Below are positions 28,524 to 47,947 of a stretch of DNA of 64,000 nucleotides, piece after piece (the first letter of the stretch is position 1; each line of letters opens with the position of its first letter). Below the pieces are notes generated by a model that worked only from the letters and a program-made list of their open reading frames with translations, searched no databases and was not told the DNA's origin. The translations under genes and the position numbers were made by a program. Origin of the DNA: a virus. Lineage: Duplodnaviria; Heunggongvirae; Uroviricota; Caudoviricetes. The DNA lies in the IMG/VR virus record IMGVR_UViG_3300033804_000036; one strand, given 5' to 3'.

Positions 28524-28622
28524 CCTTCTTTTTCATTTTTTGAGAAAGTTTATAAGTCTTATAGTCGTATTAGGGTGGCAGTGTGACTTCGGAAGGGGCG
28601 TACAGATCGTAAGATCGCAGTA

Positions 28623-28682
28623 GAGGGTTAAACTCCCTCCCCCCCCCCAACCAACAAAACTCGACAATGTGGGGGGGTGGCG
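28623..28682 (+). other. Poly-C / poly-G inverted element
   Basis: gagggttaaactCCCTCCCCCCCCCCaaccaacaaaactcgacaatgtGGGGGGGTGG, in a motif-free gap. Confidence 0.5.
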
Positions 28683-28730
28683 TTAAGCGCTATCTCCGCT
28701 CCTTTATCCTTCACACATAAGGGTGAATTG

Positions 28731-28955
28731 ATGAGACCAGTAGAAAGACAGAAAGAAATGTTGCGGCTTTTAGGTGAGTTGTGGGCTAAGTTTCCTGATC
28801 AGCGGCTTGGTCAACTTCTTGAAAACTACGTGTTCTACCAAGGCAAAAGAGGAGACGTGACTAGCCAACGATTGTATCATCAGGAAGACGATGAAACGTT
28901 GAAGATTCTCAAAGCCCAGGTGAAACGTCCGCATGCGCCTGCCGCAATAAACTGA
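28731..28955 (+). CDS. Hypothetical protein, 74 aa
   Basis: agggtgaattgATG. Confidence 0.45.
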   Translation: MRPVERQKEMLRLLGELWAKFPDQRLGQLLENYVFYQGKRGDVTSQRLYHQEDDETLKILKAQVKRPHAPAAIN

Positions 28956-29383: not shown

Positions 29384-30835
29384 ATGAGTAGAGAACAGTA
29401 TCGTGAACATCTGGAAATGTTTCAGGCAGTAATGCAAGTGCCTCACGGGGACTTGACAGCCGCGTTGCAGGTGCATAAACAAGTCTGTGACCGCAACCCG
29501 TTGTTTTACGCAAAATTTGCTGTGTGGTTCATGGATAACGGAACAGTGCGAGATCATAAGGTTGCTTTTCTGCAGACGCTTTTCAACGCTAAAGAACCGG
29601 AACTGCGTGAAACTGCTTGGATGCTGCTTCAAGACGCGCCTCTGGAACTGGTTTACCGTGTGGTCGACAAGAAGTATCCACGTTCAATGCGGTCGGCAGT
29701 CATCAACAAACTGGCTAACGAAGACTCGAGGACAATGCAGTTTCAGATTCTCAGAGCCAAGAAACCTTTGAAACGACTTATCAAACGCATGCATGTTCCA
29801 ACGTCAAAGTCTGACAACGAAAACTTGCAGGCCATCGGCAAAGAACTGTTCACTAAAGACACTGAGCTTAGAGCCGTGTTCAAGCAACTGTCAGCAACAG
29901 AAGACCCTGAAGAAATAAAGAAGCTCCTGCAGAAATCCAGGCTGCCCGCCTACATCGCCGTAAGCTCAATCAAAGTTAGAAACCCAAAAGTCATGCGTGC
30001 ATTGATTGACAACATGAGTCCAGCCGAACTTTTGCAGAGCCTCAACACGCTGGGCAGACTGAAAGTGCTGGAGCCGAACATGCAGCCTGTCATGGATAAG
30101 ATTCAACGAGGCATCAACGATAACAGGATACAGGCTATGCGTGTGCATAACATCCGCAAATACCTTGACCCTGAACTTGTGCCGCCAGCCATCTTCGACT
30201 TGCTCAGCAAAGTGACAGTGCAGAAAATACGGAAAGCCGGAAAACTTAAGGGAAAAACAAGCATTCACATCGACCTGTCAGGAAGCATGGAACAGGCCAT
30301 AAAGATTGCTCGAGAAGCAGCTACAACGTTGGCGATGGCGTCAGAAACCCCGCCGACAATCTACACAGCATCAACAACGCCGTCTGAAGTTAAGCCGAGA
30401 ACCTACACTTCACAGGGTCTTGAAGATGCTTTCAGACTGTTAAGGCCGGCAGGCGGAACACCGTTAGGAGCAGGCATAGCGTTGATGAACAGGAAAAACG
30501 AGGAATGCGACACCCTGATCATCATCACCGACGAAGGAGAAAACACTCCGCCGTTCTTCGCAGATGAATACAGGAAAATGAGTTTCAAACCGCAGGTCAT
30601 CATCCTCAGAATACCCACGATTGAAATTTCAACGCTCGGACCGAACCTCAACAACGCAGGCATCCCGTTCGAACAGTTAAACGTGGACAAAGTTGACCAG
30701 TACAGCCTAGACCAGATAGTCAGACTCGTCGGCAAATCACCGTTCGACACAGTCGTAACCATCATGAGCCAAGACCTGCCGCAGAGACCACCGGAACTTC
30801 GCGTGCCAGATTACTGGAAGAAAAAAGAAGGCTGA
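29384..30835 (+). CDS. vWA-domain protein with an alpha-helical N-terminal region (Ro60/TROVE-like?)
   Basis: MIDAS DLSGSM ... GGTPLGAG ... IIITDEGEN. The N-terminal ~280 aa is helical and weakly similar to a TROVE module. Confidence 0.55.
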   Translation: MSREQYREHLEMFQAVMQVPHGDLTAALQVHKQVCDRNPLFYAKFAVWFMDNGTVRDHKVAFLQTLFNAKEPELRETAWMLLQDAPLELVYRVVDKKYPRSMRSAVINKLANEDSRTMQFQILRAKKPLKRLIKRMHVPTSKSDNENLQAIGKELFTKDTELRAVFKQLSATEDPEEIKKLLQKSRLPAYIAVSSIKVRNPKVMRALIDNMSPAELLQSLNTLGRLKVLEPNMQPVMDKIQRGINDNRIQAMRVHNIRKYLDPELVPPAIFDLLSKVTVQKIRKAGKLKGKTSIHIDLSGSMEQAIKIAREAATTLAMASETPPTIYTASTTPSEVKPRTYTSQGLEDAFRLLRPAGGTPLGAGIALMNRKNEECDTLIIITDEGENTPPFFADEYRKMSFKPQVIILRIPTIEISTLGPNLNNAGIPFEQLNVDKVDQYSLDQIVRLVGKSPFDTVVTIMSQDLPQRPPELRVPDYWKKKEG

Positions 30836-30838
30836 GTA

Positions 30839-31096
30839 ATGCCTGAGCGACCGCTAAGGCCAGATGAACTGCTTCGGTTTCTTCAAGAGCATAATACTGG
30901 CAAAGTGTTCATGGCGTTGAAACAGTTGGACAATGAAGGCACTGAACCAAGCCTCCACGATCTTTGCCTACATGAACTTCAAGGCATGGTCGAAGGCAAC
31001 GCTGACATAATCATCCAGCAAGGCAGACAAATCAACGTTCTCAAAGAAGAAATCAAAGACCTCCGAGAAGAACTGAAAGCAATGTTCCATCCCTAA
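30839..31096 (+). CDS. Coiled-coil protein, 85 aa
   Basis: ATG overlaps the upstream stop. Confidence 0.45.
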   Translation: MPERPLRPDELLRFLQEHNTGKVFMALKQLDNEGTEPSLHDLCLHELQGMVEGNADIIIQQGRQINVLKEEIKDLREELKAMFHP

Positions 31097-31150
31097 TCTC
31101 CACTTTTTTAGGGTGAAAGCGATGAAGATTTTGGTCTGAAGGTGAATTAA

Positions 31151-31429
31151 ATGCCGCGGAACATTACTGTTTACGTCTCCGACGAGTTAACCGAAAGAAT
31201 GAAGAAGATGCCTGAAATTAATTGGAGCGAAATATGCAGGCAAGGAATCGAGAAGTATCTTGATAAAGAAGTTGAAAAATCCGAGGAATTGTTCAAAACG
31301 CTGGAAACCCTGATGGCGAAGATAGCAAAATTAGAGTTTGAAGTGCAATTCATCAAAAAAACTATCATACACGAACCGCTTCCACCAGAAAAGCCACAAG
31401 AAGGTGTGGGTGAAAAACATGATGGATAG
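31151..31429 (+). CDS. Hypothetical protein, 92 aa
   Basis: aggtgaattaaATG. Confidence 0.45.
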   Translation: MPRNITVYVSDELTERMKKMPEINWSEICRQGIEKYLDKEVEKSEELFKTLETLMAKIAKLEFEVQFIKKTIIHEPLPPEKPQEGVGEKHDG

Positions 31430-31598
31430 AGAAGATACAAAGCGGATAATGAGAGAATGCTGGAACGATGCAGAAGACATAGTTGGAGGATACACAGAAA
31501 AAGTCAACGCCGTTGCTAAACTAGCGCGGAAAATGTTTGATGCGCGAACATGGGATGGAAAGATGCATGAACATATTTGCAGACATAACAAAAGCTGA
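31419..31598 (+). CDS. Hypothetical protein, 59 aa
   Basis: gtgggtgaaaaacATGATG. Overlaps the upstream gene end. Confidence 0.4.
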   Translation: MMDREDTKRIMRECWNDAEDIVGGYTEKVNAVAKLARKMFDARTWDGKMHEHICRHNKS

Positions 31599-31609
31599 AA
31601 GGTGAGACA

Positions 31610-31813
31610 ATGACAGAACCATTTCATGGGACAGACTCAAAAGTCGTAGGTCCTGTGACAATCAACTGTATGAACAAGGAAGCTCGAGACCTGCTGGACA
31701 TGTTGTGCAAAAAATTCAAAGAAGAACAGAAGAAAGATGTACATGATGTCAACGGATACCAAACGCTTTACTGGGCAGTTCGTTGGTCAGGCTTGATTCA
31801 GCCGGTGAAATGA
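31610..31813 (+). CDS. Hypothetical protein, 67 aa
   Basis: aaggtgagacaATG. Confidence 0.45.
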   Translation: MTEPFHGTDSKVVGPVTINCMNKEARDLLDMLCKKFKEEQKKDVHDVNGYQTLYWAVRWSGLIQPVK

Positions 31814-32610
31814 TGGAAAAAACATTCACGGCCATTGTTTTGCCTGGAGACACTAAAGTCCGAGAATTGACGCCTGAAGGCATAGTTGAATATACGAAGC
31901 TTACTCCGCAATCTGGAATAATCGTCTTTGGCAAACACAAAGATTTTGCAGATCCACTACGATTCGCTGAGCCTCACGAAAGAACAGAATTGTTTGACGC
32001 TCTAAAGCTGCCTCAGGTAACAGTTTTGCCAGTGATGAAAACTTCAAGCTGGTTATGTTTACCGGTCAATCGTAATCAATACGGAAAGTCTGTTAAGGCT
32101 AAGGCGCCGCTTCCATTATTGTTTGAAACCAATCCTGTAAGCATGTTTGACCCGGTGCTTGCTCGAGTCTATAAGCAGCGGCGAACATGGCTGATCTACG
32201 AGGACATCAACGAAAGATTTCCAGCAGGTCAGATAGACTTGCTTCGCACAGCGTTTACATACATGGAAAACATGGGCGGTTACCAGACACAGCCAAAGTT
32301 TGCGTTGCCGAAGGAGCTTCGTGAAGCGTTGGAACTGGCGGTAGCCACTACTGAACGGCCTATTGAACGGATGGTCAAATACGCTTTGAAGCTGGCAGGT
32401 GCTACACTTGTGAAGCTGGAGGACATGGGCAATGGACAATACCGAGTCAACTACCACTACAAAGACTACGACGATTCAGTGATCATCAACGATAAACTGA
32501 CAGTCATCAGTTCAGGAATATGTCTCTCAGGCCGAGACATGGAGCAAGACTTAACCTCAATAGTGTTCGTACTTGATAAAAAACACAGAGAAGATGATAA
32601 CGATGATTGA
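31810..32610 (+). CDS. Hypothetical protein, ~266 aa
   Basis: gccggtgaaATGATG. Confidence 0.5.
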   Translation: MMEKTFTAIVLPGDTKVRELTPEGIVEYTKLTPQSGIIVFGKHKDFADPLRFAEPHERTELFDALKLPQVTVLPVMKTSSWLCLPVNRNQYGKSVKAKAPLPLLFETNPVSMFDPVLARVYKQRRTWLIYEDINERFPAGQIDLLRTAFTYMENMGGYQTQPKFALPKELREALELAVATTERPIERMVKYALKLAGATLVKLEDMGNGQYRVNYHYKDYDDSVIINDKLTVISSGICLSGRDMEQDLTSIVFVLDKKHREDDNDD

Positions 32611-33256
32611 GTGTGCATGTGGATGTGGCGAGACATTTAGACCAAGTATCTACTCAGGCAAAGATGGACAAGTTTGTGCGCGTTTCAAAAGAGGACACGC
32701 TACACATAAATCGTGGAATAAAGGAAAAACCAAACAAGATACACCAAAACTTGCAATAGCAGCGCAAAAAACATCTACAACTCGCAAGAGACTTATTGCA
32801 GAGGGAAAACTGAAAGTAATTCAACGCCCACGTACACTCGAAGAGAGAAAACATCTAAGTGAAGTACGAAAAAGATTATTTGCTGAAGGAAAACTACCGA
32901 CACCTATTGGTTGTCCCGGAAGAAAATCAACTCCCGAAGAACTAAAAAGAAAAAGCGAAAGCATGAAGAAAGCTTGGCAAACAACACGTCAGCATCATGA
33001 TCGAACAGTTGAAGAAACTTGCGCTAGACTTAATTGTCAAGGCTTTAAAACAATTCCGCTTTCAGGTCAGAGATATCAACCTGATGGAATTATCGTTGAT
33101 TTTGAGAATAGAAAAATTCTGGCGCTAGAAGTCGAAAGACAACCCACACCCAAACGAATGAGAGGTTGGAACCCTAGAAAAGACTTTGACGATATATTCA
33201 TCGTTGACATATCAATTCCAAAATGGAGGCAATCATCAAATGAATTTTCATTGTAA
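32573..33256 (+). CDS. Zinc-ribbon / PD-(D/E)xK-like nuclease candidate
   Basis: N-terminal CACGCGE ... CARFKRGH. C-terminal QPDGIIVDF ... ILALEVE resembles a restriction-endonuclease-fold motif. Confidence 0.4.
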   Translation: MIKNTEKMITMIECACGCGETFRPSIYSGKDGQVCARFKRGHATHKSWNKGKTKQDTPKLAIAAQKTSTTRKRLIAEGKLKVIQRPRTLEERKHLSEVRKRLFAEGKLPTPIGCPGRKSTPEELKRKSESMKKAWQTTRQHHDRTVEETCARLNCQGFKTIPLSGQRYQPDGIIVDFENRKILALEVERQPTPKRMRGWNPRKDFDDIFIVDISIPKWRQSSNEFSL

Positions 33257-33378
33257 ACTTAGAGGACACAGATGGGTCCGTACATCGGTGTCTACGCTAT
33301 CAACTACTACGGCGCAAAAGTAACGTGCAAGCGCTGTGGAGAACTGTTAGATGATAAAACTCAGGAGGAAAGACGAGA

Positions 33379-33555
33379 ATGAAGAAACACGTCAAAATAT
33401 TTTACTCCAATCTTGAATCAACCGTAGAACCACTCGAGGAAAAAATCAATGCTTTTCTTGAAGATAAGCCATGGTTTGACATTCTGCCGCCCGTGATGGT
33501 CGGCTGCGCAATGTTTGTCATGGTCATTTATGAGGAGGCTTCGAAGGATGAGTGA
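33379..33555 (+). CDS. Small membrane protein, 58 aa
   Basis: aggagg RBS. Hydrophobic C-terminal helix. Overlaps the E1-like gene start. Confidence 0.35.
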   Translation: MKKHVKIFYSNLESTVEPLEEKINAFLEDKPWFDILPPVMVGCAMFVMVIYEEASKDE

Positions 33556-34255
33556 GAGACAGTTTTTGCATGAGGAACTGTACCGTGGAAAAAACTATGG
33601 TAAACTCAAGGATAAGGTTGTTGTGATGGCCGGATGTGGAGCGATAGGCAGTTGGACTGCCACGTTTCTGGCAAGAATGGGCGTTGCAAACTTTCGGCTG
33701 ATCGACAAAGACCGGATAGAAGACCATAACGTTTCTACGCAGACGTTTCTGCCTGCCAACGTAGGCCAATACAAAACCCGTGCTTTACAGGAACAGCTTT
33801 ATAGGATCAGCAAAGCCAGATGCGAACTGCAACCAGTAGAACTGACAACCCAGAATCTTTCTCTCCTACACAAATGTGATCTGGTCATTTGCACCTTCGA
33901 CAACTCTGCATCACGCCAACTTGTTAAGTCAGCAGCCTTAAGCGAAAAAATAACGCCGTTAACAAAGGTACAAGGACACGACGGCCATGGAAGTTTCATC
34001 GGAGTAATTCAACGTATGTTTCCATGCGTCTTTGCAGGCATGAATGGACAGGAAGCCTACTTCGAAGTTGTGTGGGCTGAAAGCTACAAAGTTCCCAAAG
34101 ACCCAGAACAGGCTGAACTGGACCCATGCGCCTATCCGCTGAGCACGCCGCTTGTCACATCAGTAGCCGCAGCAACCGCCGAAATCGCAGTCCAATACCT
34201 GCTGACAAACCAGAAACTCACATGCAGACAAACACTAAACCAAACAATCTCCTAA
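33548..34255 (+). CDS. E1-like enzyme, ThiF/MoeB/UBA family
   Basis: VVMAGCGAIGSWTATFLARMGVANFRLIDKDRIEDHNVSTQ (Rossmann GxGxxG followed by the DxD region). Confidence 0.7.
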   Translation: MSERQFLHEELYRGKNYGKLKDKVVVMAGCGAIGSWTATFLARMGVANFRLIDKDRIEDHNVSTQTFLPANVGQYKTRALQEQLYRISKARCELQPVELTTQNLSLLHKCDLVICTFDNSASRQLVKSAALSEKITPLTKVQGHDGHGSFIGVIQRMFPCVFAGMNGQEAYFEVVWAESYKVPKDPEQAELDPCAYPLSTPLVTSVAAATAEIAVQYLLTNQKLTCRQTLNQTIS

Positions 34256-34307
34256 CCTTTTTTTCCTGGGTGAACAATCTCCTAACCTTTTTTTCTTGGG
34301 TGAAATT
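34256..34307 (+). repeat. Tandem duplication of the intergenic motif (2 x ~26 nt)
   Basis: caatctcctaacctttttttcctgggtgaa followed by caatctcctaacctttttttcttgggtgaa. Confidence 0.7.
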
Positions 34308-34928
34308 GTGCCTAAAATAACGAAACGCTCCTACAGAATTAACAAGAAAGACATCGAGTTCACTATTGCTTACAGTCTTAAAGATCAAGAATTCTACATT
34401 ACACTGCCTGATTGGATGGCAGGTCTTTTACAAACTGAAAGACTTGGCGCTAAGACACAATGGGATGTTGAACAAGCCTTAGAACAAGCCGTTAAAAAAT
34501 ACGGCAACCTGACGAAACTAGAGGAAAAAGTCATCTTCTACACTTTCAAGTCTATGATTAGAGAGCTAAACTTTGAAGATGACAACGCAGCGCAGGGGCT
34601 GGATGAAATGTGCAGTGAAGGCGTGGCACTTGATTTGTGGTTCAGAGTAGGCTATGTCGTCAGAGACCCAACGGAAAATAGAGAAATATATCTCACTGAA
34701 GAACACAAATGCCCGCGAGGGGCAGGGGTTTTCGCCGCACTTGAATATCAATGGTGCCATTACATGACGTACACTCCAGAACGTGAACAATTTTTCCTAG
34801 CATTTCGAGAATGGCTGATCACTGGCATAGTAAAAATGGGCAATTTCTTTAAGGAAACCGAATTGCCAGTCTTAATGGATGAATTGGTACGCAACCGCAA
34901 AGCTTTACCGTTCAAAGATTCTACATAA
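34308..34928 (+). CDS. Hypothetical protein, ~206 aa
   Basis: GTG start after the duplicated motif. Confidence 0.45.
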   Translation: MPKITKRSYRINKKDIEFTIAYSLKDQEFYITLPDWMAGLLQTERLGAKTQWDVEQALEQAVKKYGNLTKLEEKVIFYTFKSMIRELNFEDDNAAQGLDEMCSEGVALDLWFRVGYVVRDPTENREIYLTEEHKCPRGAGVFAALEYQWCHYMTYTPEREQFFLAFREWLITGIVKMGNFFKETELPVLMDELVRNRKALPFKDST

Positions 34929-34948
34929 TTTTTCTGTTGGGTGAAAAA

Positions 34949-35671
34949 ATGTCTGAATATCCAAAGATTGAAACATTGTTTGACCGCGACCCGAAAACGG
35001 TCAAGGTTGACGAAAGCAAAATTCGACTGCCAGAGTTTCTAATGGTAAGCAAATGGTACGTCACAGAGAAAATTGACGGAACAAACGTACGGACTGATTT
35101 CAAAACCAAATGGGAACCAACTGGAAAGTTTCTAAGTCCAAACCAGCCTGTTGTTCAAAATGCTGGTCGCGTGGTAGAAGTTGCGGGCAGAACTGAAAAT
35201 GCGCAGATGCCGCCGTTTCTCTATCGGTTTCTGTCCGACACTTTCACTCTGGAAAAATTGCAGCAAACATTTCCAGATCTTGAACCTCATATCACCGTAA
35301 CAATTTACGGCGAAGGTTACGGACCAAAAATTCAAAGCGGAGGTAACTATCGCAAAGACATTGCGTGTAGACTTTTTGACGTGAAAGTTGGTTCGTGGTG
35401 GCTTGAACCTGACAACATCGACAGTGTAGCTCGGAAGCTGGGCATTCAAACTGTTCCGTTGATTTCGGAAGCCATGACCATTGAAGACGCAGTCGCATTC
35501 GTCAAGAATAAACCGCAATCCAAAGTTTCAATGCAGGAATATGAAGGCATATGCAAAGACGGAAAATATCCATCAATAGAAGGCATAGTAGCAAGGACTA
35601 CACCGCTATTGTTGCGACGCAACGGCGAAAGACTAATGTGGAAACTGAAATGTAAAGACTTCAAACTCTAA
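34949..35671 (+). CDS. ATP-dependent RNA-ligase-like nucleotidyltransferase (Rnl family)
   Basis: Motif I KIDGTNV, motif IV-like EGIVAR, motif V WKLK. Confidence 0.62.
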   Translation: MSEYPKIETLFDRDPKTVKVDESKIRLPEFLMVSKWYVTEKIDGTNVRTDFKTKWEPTGKFLSPNQPVVQNAGRVVEVAGRTENAQMPPFLYRFLSDTFTLEKLQQTFPDLEPHITVTIYGEGYGPKIQSGGNYRKDIACRLFDVKVGSWWLEPDNIDSVARKLGIQTVPLISEAMTIEDAVAFVKNKPQSKVSMQEYEGICKDGKYPSIEGIVARTTPLLLRRNGERLMWKLKCKDFKL

Positions 35672-35752
35672 CTTTTTCTATGGGTGATAAGATGAGTGTT
35701 GTAAATCTTGGGGAAACAGTGGGAGTGGCTGAGACAGTTCTACGTGGACATG

Positions 35753-36133
35753 CTTCAAACTGTTGAGAGATCTCAGATGGACAGTAGAGAACGAGGCTTT
35801 TTCATAGTGCAGAACGAAGGCAGGTTTCCAGTCCGCACGAAAGTCCAAGTTGGCAACGGCGGCCAGGTTGTTCTCAGAATGAAGAGTTTAGAACCGTTTC
35901 TAACGGTGGAAAGCAGGTTGATGAGCTTCCACACGCACTGTTTTGGAAGCGGTGCACCAAGCAGGACCGATGGAGATACAGCCATCGCTCTTGGAGAAGA
36001 ATACACGGTCATAGGCTACCCAGCGATAAACAGAAAAGCAACAACGGTGCTAAGTCTACCCCGTATCGTAGTGTGGCAAATCACGAGTAAACAGGGCAGG
36101 TTCTTTAATGCAAAACGAATCTTCAAATTCTGA
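35753..36133 (+). CDS. Hypothetical protein
   Basis: ORF in a different frame from the short motif-initiated peptide at 35691. The start is uncertain. Confidence 0.3.
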   Translation, partial: LQTVERSQMDSRERGFFIVQNEGRFPVRTKVQVGNGGQVVLRMKSLEPFLTVESRLMSFHTHCFGSGAPSRTDGDTAIALGEEYTVIGYPAINRKATTVLSLPRIVVWQITSKQGRFFNAKRIFKF

Positions 36134-36335
36134 CAGGTCCCGTCTAATCCTGGAAGCGTTGGAGCGTAAACCTCTTTCAGGCAAAGAGGTACAGGCAGCC
36201 ACCAGTCTCCCTCTTCCCACTGTTTACCGGTATCTGGGTGAACTGCAAAAAATCAGGTTCATCATCAAAGACAAAGGAACCTACGCGTTGACAGACCGTG
36301 GAAGACAACTGTTGGAAGTGCTAGAAAAAGAGTGA
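36108..36335 (+). CDS. Winged-helix DNA-binding protein
   Basis: LILEALERKPLSGKEVQAATSLPLPTVYRYLGELQK. Confidence 0.45.
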   Translation: MQNESSNSDRSRLILEALERKPLSGKEVQAATSLPLPTVYRYLGELQKIRFIIKDKGTYALTDRGRQLLEVLEKE

Positions 36336-36795
36336 AAGGTCAGGAACAGGCATCTGCTGATCCAAAACTCGCTGTTTCTGCCAAGCCCTGTAAAGAGTAA
36401 GCCGCATGTTAGCGTCCTTCAACATTTCAAACAGCCGCGTCCTATCCTTCTTCAATCCTTCACCATATTCCTTCGACAACCCGAGACGCGTCTCAAAAAG
36501 TTTCACTGTGTCCAACAGACACGTTTCAGTTACCGTTTTCGGCTTGTCTAATATCCATCACCAACAAACAAAGGGAAAAGAGAGGTAAGTTTGAGTATGC
36601 GTAAAGTGGGAGTGCGTTCAGTTCAACATTTTGGCAATTGAATTTGTACGCACGTCCCGAGGACGCATCGACATCTTATAGGTGGAGGTTCCTTATATAA
36701 TTTTCCCTTTTTTCTCAATTAATGAGAATCCAGGCAAACTGTTATATATGTGAACAACAGATGTGAAGGGTGATGCGTCAAAAACGAGGGCGTAC

Positions 36796-36872
36796 AGACA
36801 ATTAGCTCAACCTGGTTGAGCATTGGCCTATAGAGCCGAAGAATGAGGGTTCAAATCCCCCATTGTCTACCA
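36796..36872 (+). tRNA. tRNA with an AUA anticodon (Tyr-like) and CCA encoded. The only + strand tRNA
   Basis: Acceptor AGACAAT/ATTGTCT, D-arm GCTC-aacctggtt-GAGC, anticodon arm TTGGC-CTATAGA-GCCGA, T-arm GAGGG-TTCAAAT-CCCCC, then A-CCA. Confidence 0.55.
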
Positions 36873-36921: not shown

Positions 36922-37113
36922 ATGGCGAGATTGAAAATTGTTCAGGGCGCTGACAAGACAGACGTGGAAGTTCCCGAGGACATGTTGCACGCAAGCGATG
37001 AACAGGTTATAAGCTACATTCACGAGACTCTCCACAGAGAACTGGCTGAAAACACTGTTATCGAAAGAACTTCCGAAGCTATAATCTGCCATCCGTCAGC
37101 AGTCTACGGATAG
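36922..37113 (+). CDS. Hypothetical protein, 63 aa
   Basis: gggtgaaaaatATG. Confidence 0.4.
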   Translation: MARLKIVQGADKTDVEVPEDMLHASDEQVISYIHETLHRELAENTVIERTSEAIICHPSAVYG

Positions 37114-37149: not shown

Positions 37150-37629
37150 ATGAATTGGGGATATGTGGCAGGCTTCTTTGATGGAGAAGGTTGTTTAACT
37201 TTCTCATATGAAAGTAAGCAAGTAGCTCCAAGAATTGAAATATCAAACTGTAACTCGGATACATTAGAAGCACAAAGAACTTTTACAGGTAACTTAGGTC
37301 ACATAAACCCGTATAAGCCGCGACGTAGACATAGTGGCTTACTCCCGAAATACACAAAGAATACCCGACCGATTTGGCGATGGGACATTGCTCATCGCGA
37401 CGACGTACAAACTTTCCTTGAAAACATAAAATCCTTTCTTATCATTAAGAAAGATTTGGCTGAGCTAGCACTCGTAATAATCGCAAATAATGACTACTCC
37501 AAATGTTCACATAAACTTCACAGAGTTGACCAGAAGAAATTCGACGCAAATATTGGAAAGAGGAGAAGACCTGCAAGGAACTTGGTAAAGAGTATAAAGT
37601 GCATCCAATGGCGATTCAAAAATTCATGA
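37150..37629 (+). CDS. LAGLIDADG homing endonuclease, single motif
   Basis: MNWGYVAGFFDGEGCL. A tatatag TATA-like element lies upstream, where the GGGTGAA motif is absent. Confidence 0.65.
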   Translation: MNWGYVAGFFDGEGCLTFSYESKQVAPRIEISNCNSDTLEAQRTFTGNLGHINPYKPRRRHSGLLPKYTKNTRPIWRWDIAHRDDVQTFLENIKSFLIIKKDLAELALVIIANNDYSKCSHKLHRVDQKKFDANIGKRRRPARNLVKSIKCIQWRFKNS

Positions 37630-38062: not shown

Positions 38063-38248
38063 ATGAGGCTAGGATTCAACATAGGAGCTTTCCTTGTGGG
38101 TTTCGGCACACCAGCGTTCGTTTACGGTGTTGTCGAATGGTGCTCACAGAAGCCACGTGTATTCTACCTAGTTGAAATGGTTGTGGGACTTTCTGTAACT
38201 GCAGCAGGATTTCTCTTGATATATGCTTCGGAGAAAAGAAAGAAATGA
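38063..38248 (+). CDS. Small membrane protein
   Basis: Two TM helices. Confidence 0.45.
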   Translation: MRLGFNIGAFLVGFGTPAFVYGVVEWCSQKPRVFYLVEMVVGLSVTAAGFLLIYASEKRKK

Positions 38249-39042
38249 CAAAGTTCACGTTTGACAAGTTCAGCTTTGACATCGACAAGTCTTTCCTGAA
38301 GCTTTCACTGCTGCTGGTTGTCAGCGGATCCCATGCTTACGGATGGCCTACTGAAGCAAGCGACTTGGATGTACGCCATGTTTTCGCCCCTGAAATCAGA
38401 CAGGCACTCAGCATATTCTACAAATGCAAGACAGAACAGCGTAAAGAAAAACATGAGGAAGGACTGATTGAATTCACAACCTATCCGATTCAGCCTTTCC
38501 TCGGGCTGCTCGCTAAAGGCAACGGAAACGTGCTGGACAACCTTTTCGAAGCCACAGGACCGCCGCAGCCAGTGCTTTACGTTGACAAACCGAAAGTTGT
38601 GGAATTGCAGAAAATAGTTCTTGATCATCTGCACAAAGGGTTTCTGATGCACTGCACCGGGTACGACACTCATCTGAAGAAAGACATGGAAAACGAGACG
38701 AGGCTAGCGCGGTACGGCAGAGAGAAGCTGCTGCTTAACAGGTACAAGATTCTGCTGGAAGGACTGATCCTCGCCAACTACGGCGAAGTAGTCTACAATC
38801 TCAGGAAACAACACGAATACATAAAGACGCTCTGGTGCATTGAACTACTAGAAGATTACCAAGCAGGCAGGCCGTTTCTCGCGTTTCTCGGCAGAAGAGC
38901 AAACCAAGAAGCAACACTTGAAGTTGAGCAACTGCATAGTCGACTGGTAAAGTTGACGGAAACAATAAAGTGGCCTACCGCAGGGCAAAGCACCATCGAC
39001 GTTCCCTTGGACAGATGGTTAATCAATCACTATCTCCCCTAA
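38245..39042 (+). CDS. Pol-beta-superfamily nucleotidyltransferase
   Basis: VSGSHAYGWPTEASDLDV (GS ... D.D). Substrate unknown. Confidence 0.55.
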   Translation: MTKFTFDKFSFDIDKSFLKLSLLLVVSGSHAYGWPTEASDLDVRHVFAPEIRQALSIFYKCKTEQRKEKHEEGLIEFTTYPIQPFLGLLAKGNGNVLDNLFEATGPPQPVLYVDKPKVVELQKIVLDHLHKGFLMHCTGYDTHLKKDMENETRLARYGREKLLLNRYKILLEGLILANYGEVVYNLRKQHEYIKTLWCIELLEDYQAGRPFLAFLGRRANQEATLEVEQLHSRLVKLTETIKWPTAGQSTIDVPLDRWLINHYLP

Positions 39043-39698: not shown

Positions 39699-39924
39699 GT
39701 GAACCACCATGCGTGAAATGTAAACAAACTATGCCTGAAGAATGGCTGAAACAAAACTGCCCATGCGCGGAAAGAAAGGCTTGGGAAGCTAATCAGGAGA
39801 AAGAAAATGAAGGAAGAAAGAGAAGAAAACATAGACCCTGAAGAAGATGATCCCACAACTGATCTGTTGGCGGAGGAAGAAAATGCCGAACTGCAAAGGC
39901 GCGAATAGTTTCAGGGGTGACAAC

Positions 39925-41301
39925 ATGAACAACCTTTTGCTTCAAACAGATTCGTACAAGCAGTCGCATTGGAAACAGTATCCACCAGGAACAACCAACA
40001 TCTACAGCTACTTCGAAAGCAGAGGAGGAGAATATCCTGAAGTGGTTTTCTTCGGCCTACAATATATTCTGAAACGATACTTGGAAGGACAAGTGGTTAC
40101 AGAAGCCAAAATCGAAGAAGCCGAAAAAATCTGCGCCCTCCATTTCGGCAGTGAAGACCTGTTCAACAAAGACGGCTGGAACTATATTCTCGATGTCCAT
40201 GGTGGCAAACTTCCGCTTTCAATCAAAGCGGTCCCTGAAGGAACAGTTGTGCCAACCCATAACGTGCTGGTAACCGTGGAAAACACAGATCCTAACGTGC
40301 CTTTCCTAACCAATTTTGTAGAGACTCTTCTAGTGCAAACATGGTATCCAAGCACAGTAGCCACATTGTCACGACACATCAAACAACTGATAAACAGGTA
40401 TCTGGAAATCACTGGTGACCCGTCCTTAATCGACTTCAAACTACACGACTTCGGCTTCAGAGGAGTATCTTCAACAGAAAGTGCTGGTATAGGCGGCTGC
40501 GCTCATCTAGTCAACTTCAAAGGCACAGACACAATGGCGGCGCTGATGATCGCCAGAGAATACTACCATTGTGAAATGGCAGGCTTCAGCATTCCAGCAG
40601 CAGAACACAGCACCATGACCGCATGGGGAAAAGACCATGAAGTAGACGCTTTCCGCAACATGCTACGCAGCTACCCGAAAGGCACAGTCGCCGTCGTCTC
40701 CGACCAGTACGACATTTACAAAGCATGCGCAGACCTCTGGGGAACCCTGCTTAAACAAGAAGTTCTGGAAAGAGACGGAGTCCTAGTTATCCGGCCAGAC
40801 AGCGGCAACCCGCCTGAAGTTGTCTTGAAAGTAATCAGCATCCTCGGCGAACATTTCGGCTACTACAAAAACGACAAAGGCTACAAAGTCCTGAACAACC
40901 ACGTTCGAGTGATACAGGGAGACGGCGTTGACGAGCAGATGATAGAAAAAGTTTTGAAAACCTTGGAACTGAGCAGATGGAGCACGGACAACATTTCATT
41001 CGGCATGGGCGGCGGCCTCCTGCAGAAACTTCACAGAGACACGCAGAAATTCGCGTTCAAATGTTCAAACGCCGTCGTCAACGGAGAACAACGCCTAGTC
41101 TTCAAAACTCCTATAACAGACCCGGGTAAAAACAGCAAGGCTGGACGACTTAAACTGGTCAAAAGCAACGGCACATACATAACCGTTCCCGAATGGGCTG
41201 ACAGGTACGGGCCAGACCGGCTTGTGCAAGTTTTCCTCAACGGCTACGTCACTACAAAATATTCTATGGACACAATCAGGGAACGGGCCAAAATAAGGTG
41301 A
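39925..41301 (+). CDS. nadV: Nicotinamide phosphoribosyltransferase (NAMPT/NadV-type)
   Basis: aggggtgacaacATG. N-terminal LLQTDSYKQSHW, GG ... LSIKAVPEGTVV, ~460 aa. Confidence 0.8.
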   Translation: MNNLLLQTDSYKQSHWKQYPPGTTNIYSYFESRGGEYPEVVFFGLQYILKRYLEGQVVTEAKIEEAEKICALHFGSEDLFNKDGWNYILDVHGGKLPLSIKAVPEGTVVPTHNVLVTVENTDPNVPFLTNFVETLLVQTWYPSTVATLSRHIKQLINRYLEITGDPSLIDFKLHDFGFRGVSSTESAGIGGCAHLVNFKGTDTMAALMIAREYYHCEMAGFSIPAAEHSTMTAWGKDHEVDAFRNMLRSYPKGTVAVVSDQYDIYKACADLWGTLLKQEVLERDGVLVIRPDSGNPPEVVLKVISILGEHFGYYKNDKGYKVLNNHVRVIQGDGVDEQMIEKVLKTLELSRWSTDNISFGMGGGLLQKLHRDTQKFAFKCSNAVVNGEQRLVFKTPITDPGKNSKAGRLKLVKSNGTYITVPEWADRYGPDRLVQVFLNGYVTTKYSMDTIRERAKIR

Positions 41302-44735: not shown

Positions 44736-44769
44736 AGGAAAATCGCTGGCTAAGAAAAGAGGAAATGAG

Positions 44770-44841
44770 TCCTCTCACATGGATTCGCACCATGACTTCT
44801 TGGTTTACGGCCAAGTGTGCTAACTACTACACTATGAGAGG
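44770..44841 (-). tRNA. tRNA-Tyr(GTA)
   Basis: Hand fold: acceptor cctctca/tgagagg, T-arm catgg-attcgca-ccatg, anticodon arm cttgg-tttacgg-ccaag (RC loop CCGTAAA). Confidence 0.55.
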
Positions 44842-45845: not shown

Positions 45846-45938
45846 ACCTATGAATGGGGAATAAGGGATTTGAACCCTTGACCACGACGTTTCTTGAGAT
45901 TATCTTCCCAAGCGTCGGATGCTTAGTCCAAGCTACAC
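45846..45938 (-). tRNA. tRNA-Pro(TGG) with a ~16-nt intron
   Basis: Acceptor ggggaat/attcccc, T-arm aaggg-atttgaa-ccctt, anticodon stem CGACG/CGTCG enclosing loop CTTGGG plus intron. Confidence 0.55.
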
Positions 45939-45993
45939 CAATTCCCCACAGATTTTATTATTTTGTGATTTTATTATTTTCTGATTTTATTAT

Positions 45994-46105
45994 TGGCGGA
46001 GCAGCCGGGATTTGAACCCGGGCCGTACGATTACTGCAGACGGAAGTTTGCAACTATTTCTTCCGTCTTAGACAGTCGCACATCCTACCGCTGGACCACT
46101 GCTCC
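45994..46105 (-). tRNA. tRNA-Asp(GTC) with a ~38-nt intron, CCA encoded
   Basis: Acceptor ggagcag/ctgctcc + G + CCA. D-arm GTCC-agcggta-GGAT. Anticodon stem TGCGA/TCGTA. Intron hairpin GACGGAAG ... CTTCCGTC. Confidence 0.6.
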
Positions 46106-46162
46106 CTCGAGCGCGGTTTTCATGTTGTTTTTCCATCTTTTGAATTCCCTCGAGCGCAGAGA

Positions 46163-46234
46163 GGGCCGAGGGCGGGAGTCGAACCCGCATCCCAGGATTC
46201 ACAGACCTGTATCCTACCGTTAGCCTACCTCGGC
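46163..46234 (-). tRNA. tRNA-His(GTG) with G-1 encoded
   Basis: Acceptor GCCGAGG plus an extra 5' G pairing the discriminator C. Loop CTGTGAA. Confidence 0.65.
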
Positions 46235-46342
46235 CACTGTGTATGCCTTGCTGAACCAAGTCAGCTAGGGCTTCGGTCCCAATGGAGTTTTACGCTAGCT
46301 TATCCTAAGCCTTCCTTAATGGTTCTGGCATTTAGGCCACAG

Positions 46343-46415
46343 TGGAGAGGATGGGAATTGAACCCATGATAACGGCCTCTTCAGGACCGCGCCTTCCCTC
46401 TTGGCGACCTCTCCG
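46343..46415 (-). tRNA. tRNA-Phe(GAA)
   Basis: Acceptor ggagagg/cctctcc. Anticodon arm CGGTC-CTGAAGA-GGCCG. Confidence 0.6.
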
Positions 46416-46417
46416 AG

Positions 46418-46490
46418 CGCCGCCCGATGGAGTCGAACCATCACCTTCTGGCTCAACAGGCCAGCGCACTACCATTTATGCTAAGGCGGC
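46418..46490 (-). tRNA. tRNA-Asn(GTT)
   Basis: T-arm gatgg-agtcgaa-ccatc. Anticodon arm ctggc-tcaacag-gccag (RC loop CTGTTGA). Confidence 0.6.
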
Positions 46491-46494
46491 ATAG

Positions 46495-46568
46495 TAGGCG
46501 AGGGGCGACTCGAACGCCCACTACCGACTTATAAGGACGGCGTGCACAGCCACGTACACTACTCGCCC
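46495..46568 (-). tRNA. tRNA, anticodon unresolved (possibly TAT)
   Basis: Clear T-arm gggcg-actcgaa-cgccc and a 7-bp acceptor. The anticodon arm has a mismatch. Confidence 0.4.
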
Positions 46569-46592
46569 ACTTGTGGTGCGTTACGCACCGAG

Positions 46593-46663
46593 TGCACTCG
46601 GCGGGAATTGAACCCGCGTCTCCGCCATGGCAAGGCGACATCTTACCACTGGACCACGAGTGC
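46593..46663 (-). tRNA. tRNA-Gly(GCC)
   Basis: Perfect acceptor gcactcg/cgagtgc. Loop RC TTGCCAT. Confidence 0.55.
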
Positions 46664-46667
46664 TTGG

Positions 46668-46783
46668 GGCCGGTGGAGAGATTTGAACTCTCATCTTGCT
46701 GCTTACTCGGCAGGTACATGCTTACGATCTGCGTAAGGCGCTGCTTACAATGCAGGCGCTCTAACCATTGAAGCTACACCGGC
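46668..46783 (-). tRNA. tRNA-Thr(TGT) with a ~42-nt intron
   Basis: Acceptor gccggtg/caccggc, T-arm gagag-atttgaa-ctctc. Loop ATTGTAA. Internal hairpins. Confidence 0.5.
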
Positions 46784-46787
46784 ACAG

Positions 46788-46861
46788 TGGGGATACTTGG
46801 ATTTGAACCAAGATCAACGGTTCTGGAGACCGCCATGCTAATCCGTTGGCACCATATCCCC
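46788..46861 (-). tRNA. tRNA-Trp(CCA)
   Basis: Acceptor ggggata/tatcccc. Anticodon stem cggt/accg. Loop RC CTCCAGA. Confidence 0.55.
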
Positions 46862-46890
46862 TTTTGCCTCAGAGATTCATCACAGGCGGA

Positions 46891-47038
46891 TAGGCGCGGA
46901 AGGAGTTGAACCTTCGTTAATTGCTTTCTTGGTTCCATGCTGGGGTGTCATCCCTCTTACCACGCCACGTCTACGTTTCCGACTAGCGACCAACACGAAA
47001 CTTGTAAGGCAAATGTCCTACCGTTAGACCACGCGCCT
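46891..47038 (-). tRNA. tRNA-Val(TAC) with a ~77-nt intron
   Basis: Acceptor aggcgcg/cgcgcct, T-arm gaagg-agttgaa-ccttc. Loop CTTACA plus intron. Confidence 0.45.
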
Positions 47039-47045
47039 GCTATGG

Positions 47046-47320
47046 TAGCCCCGGAGAGAATCGAACTCTCGTCATCGGCTTTCTCCAGCGTTATCGGAAG
47101 AGGCTGACACCAGCACGGTTTCTGCGCACCGTACCGCACGCTCCCCAGTACCGACACTTCCTGGGACTTAGGTTAGGCACATACCTCCTTTGCCGACGCA
47201 TCCAAAGGCTTATGCCCTCGTTAAGACACACCTCTTAGTCGCCCACAGAGGATTCTGGTACTACCAGAGCGTCAAAGTCTTTCAGAGGCCGACATCCTTT
47301 TCCAGTTGGACTACGGGGCT
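47046..47320 (-). tRNA. tRNA-Gln(CTG) with a ~200-nt intron
   Basis: 3' half 47047-47079: acceptor agccccg, T-arm gagag-aatcgaa-ctctc, stem TCGGC. 5' half 47281-47320: cggggct acceptor, D-arm GTCC/GGAT, stem GCCGA, loop CTCTGA. Confidence 0.5.
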
Positions 47321-47459
47321 GCGAAACTAGACGCGCTCAACCTCAGGGAACTAACAACGTGCCATAAGGCAAAGGCTCTTTTTGTAGCCACGTTCTGTTG
47401 CCCTGCTTGTACTGGCTACCATCGGATATGTCATCTAGTTTTCTTCAGGCGCGTCGGAG

Positions 47460-47530: not shown

Positions 47531-47548
47531 AAGTAGACTGCCTGCAAG

Positions 47549-47620: not shown

Positions 47621-47624
47621 CATA

Positions 47625-47771: not shown

Positions 47772-47783
47772 TCGTTATTTTGG

Positions 47784-47929: not shown

Positions 47930-47947
47930 ACTTATATTTTTTGGTCA

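Follow-up and report, generated by a model that had tools for sequence, protein, structure and literature searches.

The phage DNA analysed here (the window, 64,000 nucleotides) encodes a genuine but very divergent Ro60-type protein, with a TROVE ring and a vWA cap, that was overlooked by Pfam. With somewhat better than even confidence, we believe that it belongs to a Ro RNP for tRNA/RNA quality control that is genetically coupled to a ubiquitin-like conjugation pathway. The features on which this reading is built are the following, with positions in the window.

28581–28716, plus strand: YrlA-like Y RNA candidate, 136 nt (conserved fold, compensatory changes)
29384–30835, plus strand: Ro60/Rsr-like protein, 483 aa (TROVE helical-repeat ring and C-terminal vWA domain with complete MIDAS)
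31810–32610, plus strand: protein X, novel ~270-aa family with an invariant Cys, conserved in Ro loci
33515–34255, plus strand: ThiF/MoeB-type E1-like adenylating enzyme (Pfam ThiF, E = 1.1e-27)
34949–35671 (alternative start 34937), plus strand: Rnl2-family RNA-ligase nucleotidyltransferase domain (Pfam PF09414)
35708–36133, plus strand: small JAB/JAMM-motif metallopeptidase candidate (motif)
36108–36335, plus strand: small winged-helix protein that travels with the module (homologs in related loci)
36796–36872, plus strand: tRNA, anticodon AUA, 'Tyr' (ARAGORN; Rfam, 59.7 bits)
36922–37113, plus strand: ubiquitin-like (Ubl) protein candidate, 63 aa, ending in HPSAVYG before the stop (alignment, terminal Gly)
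38245–39042, plus strand: RlaP Pol-beta nucleotidyltransferase (Pfam PF10127)

All open reading frames named in the first-pass annotation of this DNA are present where it placed them, and its proposal of a Ro60/Rsr-like protein at 29384–30835 is borne out by full-length matches, in profile and in predicted fold, solely to Ro60, Rsr and phage Ro60. A profile built from 24 homologs matched only Ro60/Rsr/TROVE chains in the PDB (9nen, E = 8.8e-11; 2nvo, 7e-7; 1yvp, 1.7e-5; 9l5y/9kop, 3.6e-4), and the best 13 Foldseek matches of the model were all Ro60, Rsr or the Ro60 of Thermus phage phiLo (~470–520 aligned columns, E 1e-12 to 1e-8, TM ~0.6). The ~280-aa N-terminal region, which had been described as helical, is all-helical and precedes the vWA domain (AF2 pLDDT 83.8), and the MIDAS recognized there is indeed intact, with D297-x-S299-x-S301, T359 and D383 invariant in the 24 homologs. 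The TROVE models of Pfam, against which a check had been proposed, do not match the protein, the NCBIfam Rsr model gives 23 bits against a cutoff of 900, and identity to solved Ro proteins is ~15–17%. The TROVE helical ring and the vWA domain with MIDAS are shared with the known Rsr/Ro60 and YrlA systems that we compared (Deinococcus, Salmonella and Mycobacterium, and the phages phiLo of Thermus, mycobacteriophages, CcrColossus and phage G).

Phage Ro60 proteins with a Y-like RNA are known (PMC12135203, PMC4201824). Two gaps had been singled out as places where Y-RNA-like structures might lie, and both (1.36–2.17 kb and 28.52–28.68 kb) are really noncoding; the former held nothing convincing, and at the latter (28.5–28.7 kb) a YrlA-like structured RNA is present at 28581–28716. 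Two small ORFs separate it from the Ro gene, and the nominal GTG start of ORF 28677–28955 falls within it. It comprises closing stems P1 and P2, a V hairpin, a T-arm (28623–28639, GAGGG-uuaaacu-CCCUC), an acceptor-like stem-loop (C7/G7) and a D-like hairpin, and so has the permuted tRNA-like domain of YrlA, in the same order of T-arm, acceptor-like stem-loop and D-arm (PMC4201824). Unconstrained MFE folds give an identical five-helix architecture in the window, L001 and L111 copies, and all 31 pairs are standard in all 3 homologs (93/93 cells). The candidate is supported by compensatory double changes at nine pairs across all five helices (slid controls, 0–2) among three homologs, two of which are nearly identical. 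As in Rsr/YrlA systems (PMC4201824, PMC12135203), the partner RNA lies just upstream of Ro on the same strand and has a closing stem; unlike the RNAs of those systems, it lacks the Ro-binding motif GNCGAAN0-1G, which we sought, as well as CGAA. No Rfam family matched it. Across 31 loci there are 36 orphan T-arm elements with a 7/7 complementary stem-loop partner, often with a D-arm-like sequence next after that partner; all 36 are upstream of Ro and on its strand, and Rfam called none of the Ro-proximal elements a tRNA in the eight loci scanned.

The Ro, Rnl and RlaP genes that the first-pass annotation grouped as a module stand, but the conserved partners Ubl, X, ThiF/E1 and JAB were overlooked. 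The E1 also matches NCBIfam ThiF (2.6e-26) and the PADLOC E1-E2 (Cap2-like) model (E = 3e-19); its conserved residues are R134, D129, Cys171 and Cys205, and its gene follows X in nearly all loci. Protein X has OB-like beta-barrels in its N-terminal part and a C-terminal alpha/beta domain with the invariant motif GIC(L)xGxDxxFDLxS (Cys238). No sequence relation to the UBC and Prok-E2 families is detectable, and X is probably an E2-like carrier, for which it is our candidate.

The Ubl candidates form a family of 63–72 aa in which every member has Gly at the stop or within two or three residues of it; all 57 distinct bacterial members end in AVYG, and P58 and the terminal G63 are invariant in 16 sequences. 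Scored with an HMM made from small proteins that precede Ro in distant loci, the window protein has E = 2.2, which is not significant, and its L001 ortholog (73% identity) has 0.093; homology is supported by the full-length alignment. The protein may have a ubiquitin-like fold; a profile comparison with the PDB and hhalign against ubiquitin and ThiS were all insignificant, and no Pfam family matched. In L021 the Ubl candidate is fused to the N-terminus of Ro. In the window JAB candidate, residues E28 (RERGFF), H75-x-H77, S/T85 and D88 make up an E...HxHx7Sx2D motif and do not vary among 4 homologs; the motif is also where the protein aligns with the HMM of the JABs from the loci, at only ~5 bits, and Pfam and the PDB gave no match. 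In L027 the gene between X and ThiF encodes a bona fide Prok-JAB (PF14464). Homologs of the winged-helix protein follow ThiF or JAB in L001, L002/3 and L028, and equivalent genes in L002, L113 and L114 match PF25213 HVO_A0261_N / HTH.

These genes are linked well beyond the window. Of 28 loci from phages or metagenomes, 19 carry the genes for Ro, X and ThiF on a single strand, with Ro identity falling as low as 24–27%; in 11 loci a JAB homolog sits between X and ThiF, and the small Gly-terminated protein is placed upstream of Ro. The public huge phage LR756511.1 has the complete set of Ubl, Ro, X, ThiF and JAB, with JAB between X and ThiF. Ro relatives are encoded in at least 544 bacterial genomes, and in 80 sampled bacterial loci we found Ubl in 60, X in at least 45 and ThiF in 36, even with loci cut short by the 7-kb flanks; an HMM of the JABs from the loci detected none in these 80. 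Huge phages, cyanobacteria, Myxococcota and Armatimonadota all keep the order and strand of Ubl, Ro, X and ThiF, with Ro identity of 24–32%, and there are compact operons in L002 (RlaP-Ro-X-ThiF-wHTH) and L113 (Ro-X-ThiF). The coupling is not universal, since in ten viral loci the Ro-like gene is accompanied by neither X nor ThiF, and Ro-X spacing ranges from 0 to ~5 kb, with unrelated insertions. Genes for L7/L12-like paralogs and GNAT proteins also occur in many bacterial loci.

The earlier count of ~23 tRNAs in the window is fair as an upper estimate, since 19 were called and about four further T-loop motifs occur in the tRNA array; programs count 12 (ARAGORN), 17 (Rfam at gathering score) or 19 (Rfam with permissive filters). 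The 19 are 18 in a minus-strand array at 44.7–49.6 kb and one at 36796, and several tRNA genes have long insertions. The tRNA at 36796–36872 ends 49 nt upstream of the Ubl gene. A same-strand tRNA lies upstream of Ubl within 100 nt in 7 of 16 phage loci and within 800 nt in 14 of 16, in several cases as the sole tRNA in ~20 kb, and phage module loci are placed inside or beside tRNA arrays. In bacterial loci, 218 of 219 tRNAs are upstream and on the same strand, and the loci are directly downstream of, or interleaved with, co-oriented tRNA arrays (Acaryochloris marina MBIC11017, Nostoc carneum NIES-2107 and many others). The known systems closest to these are the long tRNA arrays of cyanobacteria (L-arrays; trn operon of Anabaena 7120). 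The accessible part of the L-array literature (PMC8421152) reports arrays induced by translational stress with RNA-processing genes nearby, the linked protein genes being enriched in this function, and identifies no Ro homolog, Y-like RNA or ubiquitin-like pathway.

The RNA-ligase-like call at 34949–35671 can be narrowed to the Rnl2 family (PF09414, 3.1e-14, 53.9 bits, cutoff 27; phrog_548 'RNA ligase', 4.9e-18). TIGR02307 Rnl2 reaches only E = 0.0028, over model positions 22–221 of 326, and the Rnl2 C-terminal domain is missing; motifs KIDG, FD, EGIVAR and WKLK are invariant, and orthologs occur in L001 and L111 only, in the same slot. The Pol-beta nucleotidyltransferase was also correctly recognized, and is RlaP (PF10127, 4.3e-13, 50 bits, cutoff 23; phrog_388, 1.4e-15), of the 'RNA ligase-associating Pol-beta' family (PMC7824862). 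In L002/3 the RlaP gene immediately precedes Ro, in L001 it lies between Ro and X, and bacterial L075 has two copies upstream of Ubl. Rnl and RlaP are lineage-specific accessories (two and three distinct further loci, respectively), and RNA-repair neighbours elsewhere are Tpt1/KptA in 10 bacterial loci and Band_7 in L114. The supposed second ligase at 3099–4106 is a ligase-family enzyme but groups with DNA ligases (best NCBIfam match, NHEJ/LigD ATP-dependent DNA ligase domain, E = 1.7e-34), and as a LigD-like DNA ligase it was dropped from the module.

Burroughs and Aravind (2016) reportedly surveyed jumbo-phage RNA repair kits, as did Iyer et al. (2021). The kits in the latter hold Rnl1/Rnl2/RtcB, RlaP, a CCA-adding enzyme, ROT/TROVE proteins, tRNA arrays and NAD salvage (PMC7824862), and the window shares with them a PF09414 ligase, RlaP, a TROVE protein, at least 19 tRNAs and NAMPT (gene at 39847–41301). 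It differs in that the module ORFs scanned included no kinase or phosphatase for end healing, and in having as conserved partners the genes of a ubiquitin-like pathway, on which that survey is silent; nor does the accessible literature describe Ubl, E1 or JAB partners for known Rsr/Ro60 systems. With the bacterial Ubl conjugation operons compared, namely Bil (Ubl, E2, JAB, E1), Bub/6E and type II CBASS Cap2/Cap3, the module has in common a ThiF-family E1 domain, JAB/JAMM, a small protein with C-terminal Gly and a Cys-bearing partner (PMC1779556, PMC11601596), as well as one Ubl fusion that would need cleavage. Unlike theirs, its E1 is a minimal ~215-aa single domain, its X has an OB-like N-domain and the lack of UBC/Prok-E2 relation noted above, and it is tied to Ro and tRNA arrays rather than to CD-NTases or defence islands.

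In NCBIfam the E1 matches ThiS adenylyltransferases best (2.6e-26), and tRNA thiolation through a sulfur carrier, as in TtuB/TtuC/TtuD or Urm1/Uba4, is an alternative that we consider unlikely. ThiF would then thiocarboxylate the Gly-terminated protein, the X Cys would be a persulfide relay, sulfur would pass to tRNAs of the adjacent arrays, and Ro would be merely a neighbour or tRNA-handling partner. The tRNA context is consistent with this, and TtuB-type systems are accompanied by JAB (Thermus TtuABCD). The module yielded neither a PP-loop thiouridine synthetase nor a rhodanese, however, the faint match of X to the TusA sulfurtransferase is not significant (E = 0.23), the E1 matches Cap2-type conjugating E1s too, and the L021 fusion fits a logic of release and conjugation better.

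More doubtful still is co-location without functional coupling. Ro and Y RNA, E1/X/Ubl/JAB, and Rnl/RlaP would in that case be independent passengers that gather in mobile tRNA-array regions and, by hitch-hiking, are passed on jointly. The conserved gene order and strand across phages and distant bacterial phyla, the compact operons and the Ubl-Ro fusion in one locus argue against this, although the mobility of tRNA arrays and their assortment of RNA-processing genes (PMC8421152), the ten viral Ro loci without X or ThiF and the variable Ro-X spacing would fit it. We give least credence to a host-manipulation or anti-defence system in which the phage tags proteins of the host (defence nucleases or ribosomal proteins, for instance) and the Ro-like vWA protein is a substrate receptor (E3-like adaptor) rather than an RNA quality-control factor. 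Bil and type II CBASS Ubl pathways do act in phage-host conflict (PMC11601596), conflict systems commonly use vWA domains as adaptor modules (PMC7159879), and the L7/L12-like and GNAT genes could be read in this way. But hundreds of bacteria carry the same system on their chromosomes, the entire Ro ring is conserved beyond the vWA domain alone, and a conserved tRNA-like RNA adjoins Ro, which together point to RNA binding.

In the Ro RNP that we favor, the Ro ring and Y-like RNA would capture tRNA that is damaged or misfolded, or other structured RNA in such a state. The E1 would adenylate the terminal Gly of the small protein and hand it to Cys238 of X, and X, possibly docked on the vWA MIDAS, would tag a protein at the captured RNA or Ro itself; JAB would reverse or process the tag. 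RlaP and the Rnl2-family ligase supplement the Ro module in this phage lineage, and would mend the RNA ends. Counter-defence against tRNA nucleases, suggested in the first-pass annotation, is a plausible purpose and consistent with published views of jumbo phages. The setting of such a system would be the upkeep of tRNA supply and translation, in infection and under the translational stress that induces bacterial tRNA arrays.

All of the ORFs named in the first-pass annotation were found in the window at the positions assigned to them. The central one had been described there as a Ro60-like protein with TROVE and vWA domains, and its product is a genuine homolog of Ro60/Rsr, a protein known to bind both a Y RNA and misfolded RNAs at their 3′ ends. 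The genes discussed below are:

29384–30835 (+), Ro60/Rsr homolog (Ro), 483 aa
31810–32610, X, a novel protein of ~270 aa with an invariant Cys238
33515–34255, ThiF/E1
34949–35671, Rnl-type ligase (Rnl)
35708–36133, putative JAB peptidase
36108–36335, winged-helix protein (wHTH)
36922–37113, Ubl, a putative ubiquitin-like protein of 63 aa, Gly-terminated
38245–39042, RlaP nucleotidyltransferase

The curated domain models miss this Ro almost entirely. Pfam, including TROVE (PF05731), gave no match at E ≤ 0.1, the NCBIfam Rsr model NF041674 reached 23 bits (cutoff 900) over residues 169–258 only, and the precomputed Pfam field is blank for nearly every homolog. A single-sequence search of the PDB ranked Rsr (2nvo, E 1e-4) first and human Ro60 (9nen, 8e-4) next, and a profile made from 24 homologs retrieved only Ro60, Rsr and TROVE chains (best 9nen, 8.8e-11), its alignment with the phage phiLo protein covering residues 31–387. 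The AlphaFold (AF2) model (pLDDT 83.8) has 19 helices followed by an alpha/beta vWA domain; its 13 best Foldseek matches in the PDB are all Ro60, Rsr or phiLo Ro60 (~470–520 aligned columns, E 1e-12 to 1e-8), and isolated vWA domains rank far lower. The MIDAS motif (DxSxS...T...D) is intact, with D297, S299, S301, T359 and D383 invariant in 24 sequences. By predicted model and profile, a ring of HEAT-like helical repeats closed by a C-terminal vWA domain fits the solved Ro structures over the full length. The Ro60-like assignment thus stands on the PDB profile, the fold and the MIDAS residues, and the expected match to the curated TROVE model is the part that failed; because profile and fold both match Ro, this is not an absence of TROVE similarity, though the Pfam model misses the subfamily.

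The first-pass annotation had proposed the region as a candidate RNA repair or quality-control module, a reading that is largely right; the Ro60-type protein, Rnl and RlaP are all present. The weightier result is a conserved association of Ro with a Y-like RNA, Ubl, E1, X and JAB, protein partners that had gone unseen. Across phages and bacteria, Ro is linked to the E1, the JAB peptidase, the small protein with its terminal Gly and the Cys protein X. When the ORFs of 28 phage or metagenome loci were searched with the window proteins, X and then ThiF/E1 were found downstream of Ro on the same strand in 19, at Ro identities down to 24–27%. The huge phage LR756511.1 has the complete series (tRNAs, Ubl, tRNA, Ro, X, JAB, ThiF, tRNAs), locus L111 has the gene order of the window (Ro-X-ThiF-Rnl-JAB-Ubl), and two close relatives have compact operons, Ro-X-ThiF-wHTH in L113 and Ro-X-Band_7-ThiF in L114. 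The E1 component is recognized by Pfam ThiF (1.1e-27) and by PADLOC E1-E2 models (down to 2.9e-19); for Ro, X, the window JAB and Ubl, matches in Pfam, PADLOC and NCBIfam were absent or below threshold. The JAB/JAMM isopeptidase component is present in LR756511.1 and in 11 of the more distant loci, where it lies between X and ThiF, and the L027 copy bears Pfam Prok-JAB. The window JAB has no profile-level match (Pfam, PDB or an HMM of the JABs of the other loci); it does keep the JAMM signature E...HxHx7(S/T)x2D, which is found in 4/4 of its homologs.

Clustering revealed an ORF of ~70 aa upstream of Ro. Its product invariably has a Gly at the C-terminus, at most three residues from the stop, and in L021 it is fused to the N-terminus of Ro. 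An HMM of this Ubl retrieves the window copy (HPSAVYG-stop) at an E-value of only 2.2, an assignment backed by a full-length alignment in which the terminal Gly is invariant. The same HMM retrieves copies in L001, L004, L005 and L028, and the L002 copy was found by clustering. Neither a profile search of the PDB nor hhalign against ubiquitin and ThiS gave a significant match to a Ubl fold. We also considered Ro itself as an E1 substrate through a C-terminal Gly and rejected this, since Ro C-termini are not Gly-terminated.

Among the phage loci, a same-strand tRNA gene lies ≤100 nt upstream of the Ubl gene in 7/16, including loci where it is the sole tRNA in ~20 kb. The corresponding lone tRNA of the window (36796–36872, +) has an AUA anticodon (A34, "Tyr"), and would read UAA too if A34 were deaminated to inosine; its L001 ortholog (17740–17813) has the normal GUA anticodon, and a canonical tRNA-Tyr(GUA) also lies in the window array (44769–44841). 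Two lineage-specific genes break up the window module, and both are probably mobile homing endonuclease genes, which are common near tRNA arrays. One (37150–37629, +) encodes a LAGLIDADG endonuclease; the other (32573–33256, +) encodes a probable nuclease of 227 aa that contains repeats rich in Cys and His and whose C-terminus looks PD-(D/E)xK-like by eye; it has a homolog in none of the other loci.

Protein X is a new family, with no match in Pfam, PADLOC or the PDB sequences (profile search of the PDB included). A library of 1.84 billion proteins holds 1061 representatives at 50% clustering, of consistent length. The motif G-I-C-L-x-G-x-D-x-x-F-D-L-x-S is invariant in 20 diverse members, and G[IVL]C occurs in 150/160 full-length representatives. 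In the model of X (pLDDT 79.7) the N-terminal part folds into beta-barrels; after these come a helix, a meander of four strands, the loop with the Cys and a last helix. On the basis of this topology, the invariant Cys and the company of genes in which it is found, X may be an E2-like carrier.

The association extends well into bacteria. When one genome of each species was scanned, a full-length relative of Ro at ~30% identity turned up in at least 544 bacterial genomes. Filamentous cyanobacteria predominate (cyanobacterial carriers include Nostoc, Calothrix, Microcoleus, Okeania, Oscillatoria and Acaryochloris marina MBIC11017), and other carriers are Polyangiales and other Myxococcota, Chthonomonadaceae, Actinomycetota and Bacillota. 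Of the 80 bacterial loci kept, with flanks cut at 7 kb, 60 contain Ubl, 45 contain X and 36 contain ThiF; gene order and strand are unchanged, and all 57 distinct bacterial Ubls end in AVYG-stop. tRNA genes occur in 62 of the 80 loci; 218 of the total of 219 are on the Ro strand, and those are all upstream of Ro, interspersed with the Ubl gene, many with suppressor-like or otherwise odd anticodons. The tRNA directly upstream of Ubl has a CUA (amber-reading) anticodon in 11 loci (for example L046 at 4155, L084 at 4743 and L097 at 4448), and among the other tRNAs close by are some with UCA, UUA, AUU or AUG anticodons or with loops of 8 nt. The arrays in question are the long tRNA arrays known from cyanobacteria, which in Anabaena are induced by translational stress along with rtcB and whose neighborhoods are reported to be enriched in RNA-processing genes (PMC8421152). 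Recurrent neighbors in our bacterial loci are ribosomal L7/L12-like paralogs (24 loci), tandem GNAT acetyltransferases, and Tpt1/KptA RNA 2′-phosphotransferase, an AAA ATPase and DUF6847 (10 loci each). EndoV lies near the system in Acaryochloris, the Band_7/SPFH protein of L114 is at 3620–4609, and further examples of extra neighbors among the bacterial loci (L029–L108) are L030 5647–6129 and L042 10525–11121.

Two of the three ligase or nucleotidyltransferase enzymes named in the first-pass annotation hold up. ORF 34949–35671 carries, as judged from its sequence, a PF09414 RNA-ligase nucleotidyltransferase domain (53.9 bits, cutoff 27; PHROG phrog_548 "RNA ligase") in which motifs I, III, IV and V can all be read and do not vary (KIDG, FD, EGIVAR and WKLK). 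The protein ends at 244 aa and has no Rnl2 C-terminal domain; the Rnl2 equivalog TIGR02307 scored 17 bits against a cutoff of 197, aligning only model positions 22–221 of 326, and the alignment profile gave nothing significant in the PDB (sole match Pab1020 RNA ligase, E 0.61). The proposed Pol-beta nucleotidyltransferase is RlaP (PF10127, 50 bits, cutoff 23). In the window Rnl lies 2.6 kb upstream of RlaP, and L001 also carries both; a survey of jumbo phages describes RlaP as an RNA-ligase-associating Pol-beta enzyme (PMC7824862). Both are sparsely distributed: outside the window, Rnl was found only in L001 and L111, and RlaP only in L001, L002/3 and a single bacterial locus. The supposed second ligase (3099–4106) drops out of the module: all 13 of its NCBIfam matches are DNA ligases (best 1.7e-34, under the equivalog cutoff), and by sequence it is a LigD/NHEJ-type DNA ligase, 26 kb away.

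The first-pass annotation had also nominated two noncoding gaps as places for Y RNA, and one of them, at 28.5–28.7 kb, holds a candidate YrlA-like Y RNA. Rfam reported only tRNAs and group I introns over the window and loci, and no Y RNA family. Upstream of Ro, on the same strand, 47/110 loci have perfect T-arm hairpins that ARAGORN does not call as tRNA; in 31 loci a segment ≤150 nt away is perfectly complementary to the seven bases that follow the T-arm, and because this partner segment often precedes a canonical D-arm sequence, the order of elements is T-arm, acceptor-like stem-loop, D-arm. That order, with the acceptor-like stem-loop closed, is the defining layout of YrlA (PMC4201824). In the eight loci scanned, Rfam did not call the Ro-adjacent elements tRNA. 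Three copies fold alike:

28581–28716, window, with two small ORFs between it and Ro
9741–9933, L001, 145 nt upstream of Ro
1692–1813, L111, ~165 nt upstream of Ro

Folded without constraints, each has two closing stems, a V hairpin, the T-arm, the acceptor-like stem-loop (loop of 8, 24 or ~70 nt) and a D-like hairpin whose register varies. In the alignment of these three sequences, the only ones on which the covariation is based, 31/31 pairs are kept, nine with compensatory double changes spread over five helices (0–2 in slid controls), and a conserved G-U pair sets the strand. The fold energy of the gap is unremarkable (z −0.4 to −1.7), so the case is one of covariation and not of stability. 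The GNCGAAN0-1G motif, which is conserved within the 5′ strand of the Ro-binding stem of YrlA-type RNAs, is absent from 20/20 elements inspected; the window, L001 and L111 share a GGGCGUACAGA block instead. A sigma-70 scan flagged no promoter for the candidate; by eye, a conserved TTGAGAAA...TATAGT lies upstream of it. No similar element was found upstream of Ro in L112–L114, and a pattern search of metagenome and viral collections added one metagenome contig only, probably from the same phage as L001.

In the window the GGGCGUACAGA block sits before the V hairpin of the candidate and also before the tRNA at 36796, and a related (C/U)UACAAAC motif recurs 5′ of tRNAs or tRNA-like elements near Ro in distant phage loci (L009 7700–7800, L012 7440–7560 and L013 7730–7830); it may be a common processing or leader signal. 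Between the wHTH gene and this tRNA lies a bulged hairpin of ~72 nt (36597–36668, +; L001 copy 17548–17622), in which, by our own reading of window against L001, there are four compensatory pair changes and G-U pairs that favor the + strand. We considered it as the Y RNA; its conservation with compensatory changes is limited to the window and L001, a motif search found no copy in the other loci, and it could equally serve as a processing site of the RNase III type or be another small RNA. The other nominated gap, 1.36–2.17 kb, yielded only spurious snoRNA-type Rfam matches. Its ~800 nt (1360–2170) have no + strand ORF of ≥60 aa, and the T-loop-like motif on the minus strand, an exact GGTTCAAATCC, is not part of a proper T-arm. 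A second subgroup of viral Ro-like proteins (L014, L016–L020 and L022–L025; 23–25% identity) lacks X, ThiF and Ubl and keeps a conserved gene of ~110–150 aa directly downstream of Ro; T-AS(-D) elements lie just upstream in most of these loci, and tRNA arrays flank several.

The window has the look of a huge-phage fragment, because the phage collection holds a single relative of it, the 595-kb uncultured phage LR756511.1, because IMG/VR contigs that encode relatives of the central protein reach 390 kb, and because it encodes NAMPT, homing endonucleases and a large tRNA array. The tRNA tally depends on the tool (12 by ARAGORN; 17 by Rfam at the gathering score and 19 with permissive filters), and ~4 additional T-loop motifs lie within the array. 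Some array tRNA genes with long insertions (45855–48642, −), matched by Rfam over 93–161 nt and missed by ARAGORN, may be intron-containing or otherwise non-canonical:

45855–45947 (−)
45997–46105 (−)
46668–46783 (−)
46891–47038 (−)
47625–47771 (−)
47948–48108 (−)
48521–48642 (−)

In the viral contig L009, two group I introns (1926–2124 and 2929–3116; Rfam Intron_gpI, 65–67 bits) lie inside the tRNA array adjoining the module.

A Ro60-type protein, an adjacent conserved tRNA-mimic RNA, a tRNA-array setting and accessory RNA-ligase and RlaP genes are thus found together. We infer that the E1 activates the small protein, which would act as a ubiquitin-like modifier and be carried by X, and whose targets would be Ro or proteins on Ro-bound RNA, in a system that would maintain tRNAs and translation. 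A sulfur-carrier pathway like that of TtuB or Urm1 is the main rival, which we regard as rather improbable; against it, the module has no thiolase. As to how deep the connection between conjugation and Ro might go, we tentatively propose, as a possibility that we would not yet favor, that an ancient Ro60 RNP has a ubiquitin-like conjugation pathway of its own built into it. Its parts would be the Gly-terminated modifier of 63–72 aa, a minimal E1, an unrecognized E2-like family with an OB-type nucleic-acid-binding domain, and the JAB peptidase. The Ro ring and the tRNA-mimic RNA would select defective tRNAs or ribosome-bound RNAs, and the tag would be placed on an associated protein, on Ro itself or conceivably on an RNA end. 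If such an integral pathway exists, it would correspond, in prokaryotes and phages, to the long-debated Ro60–Ro52/TRIM21 pairing and would have spread along with mobile tRNA arrays among filamentous cyanobacteria, myxobacteria and huge phages. No description of a Ro–ubiquitin-like linkage was found in the literature examined; Burroughs and Aravind (2016) lies outside it and may mention one.

Ro60, a major autoantigen, is found in conserved form in bacteria through to humans, and the fate of the RNAs it captures is poorly understood. The proteins described here make up a large unannotated Ro subfamily, present in at least 544 bacterial genomes and many huge phages and listed as "hypothetical" or "VWA domain", which has its own candidate tRNA-mimic RNA and, in many lineages, an obligatory link to a set of genes for ubiquitin-like activation and conjugation. 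They widen the range of prokaryotic ubiquitin-like systems by a new family, with a candidate E2 family of about a thousand 50%-identity clusters, and suggest a role under translational stress or phage attack for the protein genes carried on mobile tRNA arrays. With genetically tractable carriers such as relatives of Nostoc/Anabaena and Acaryochloris marina, this subfamily, its RNA and the ubiquitin-like set offer a testable handle on Ro function.
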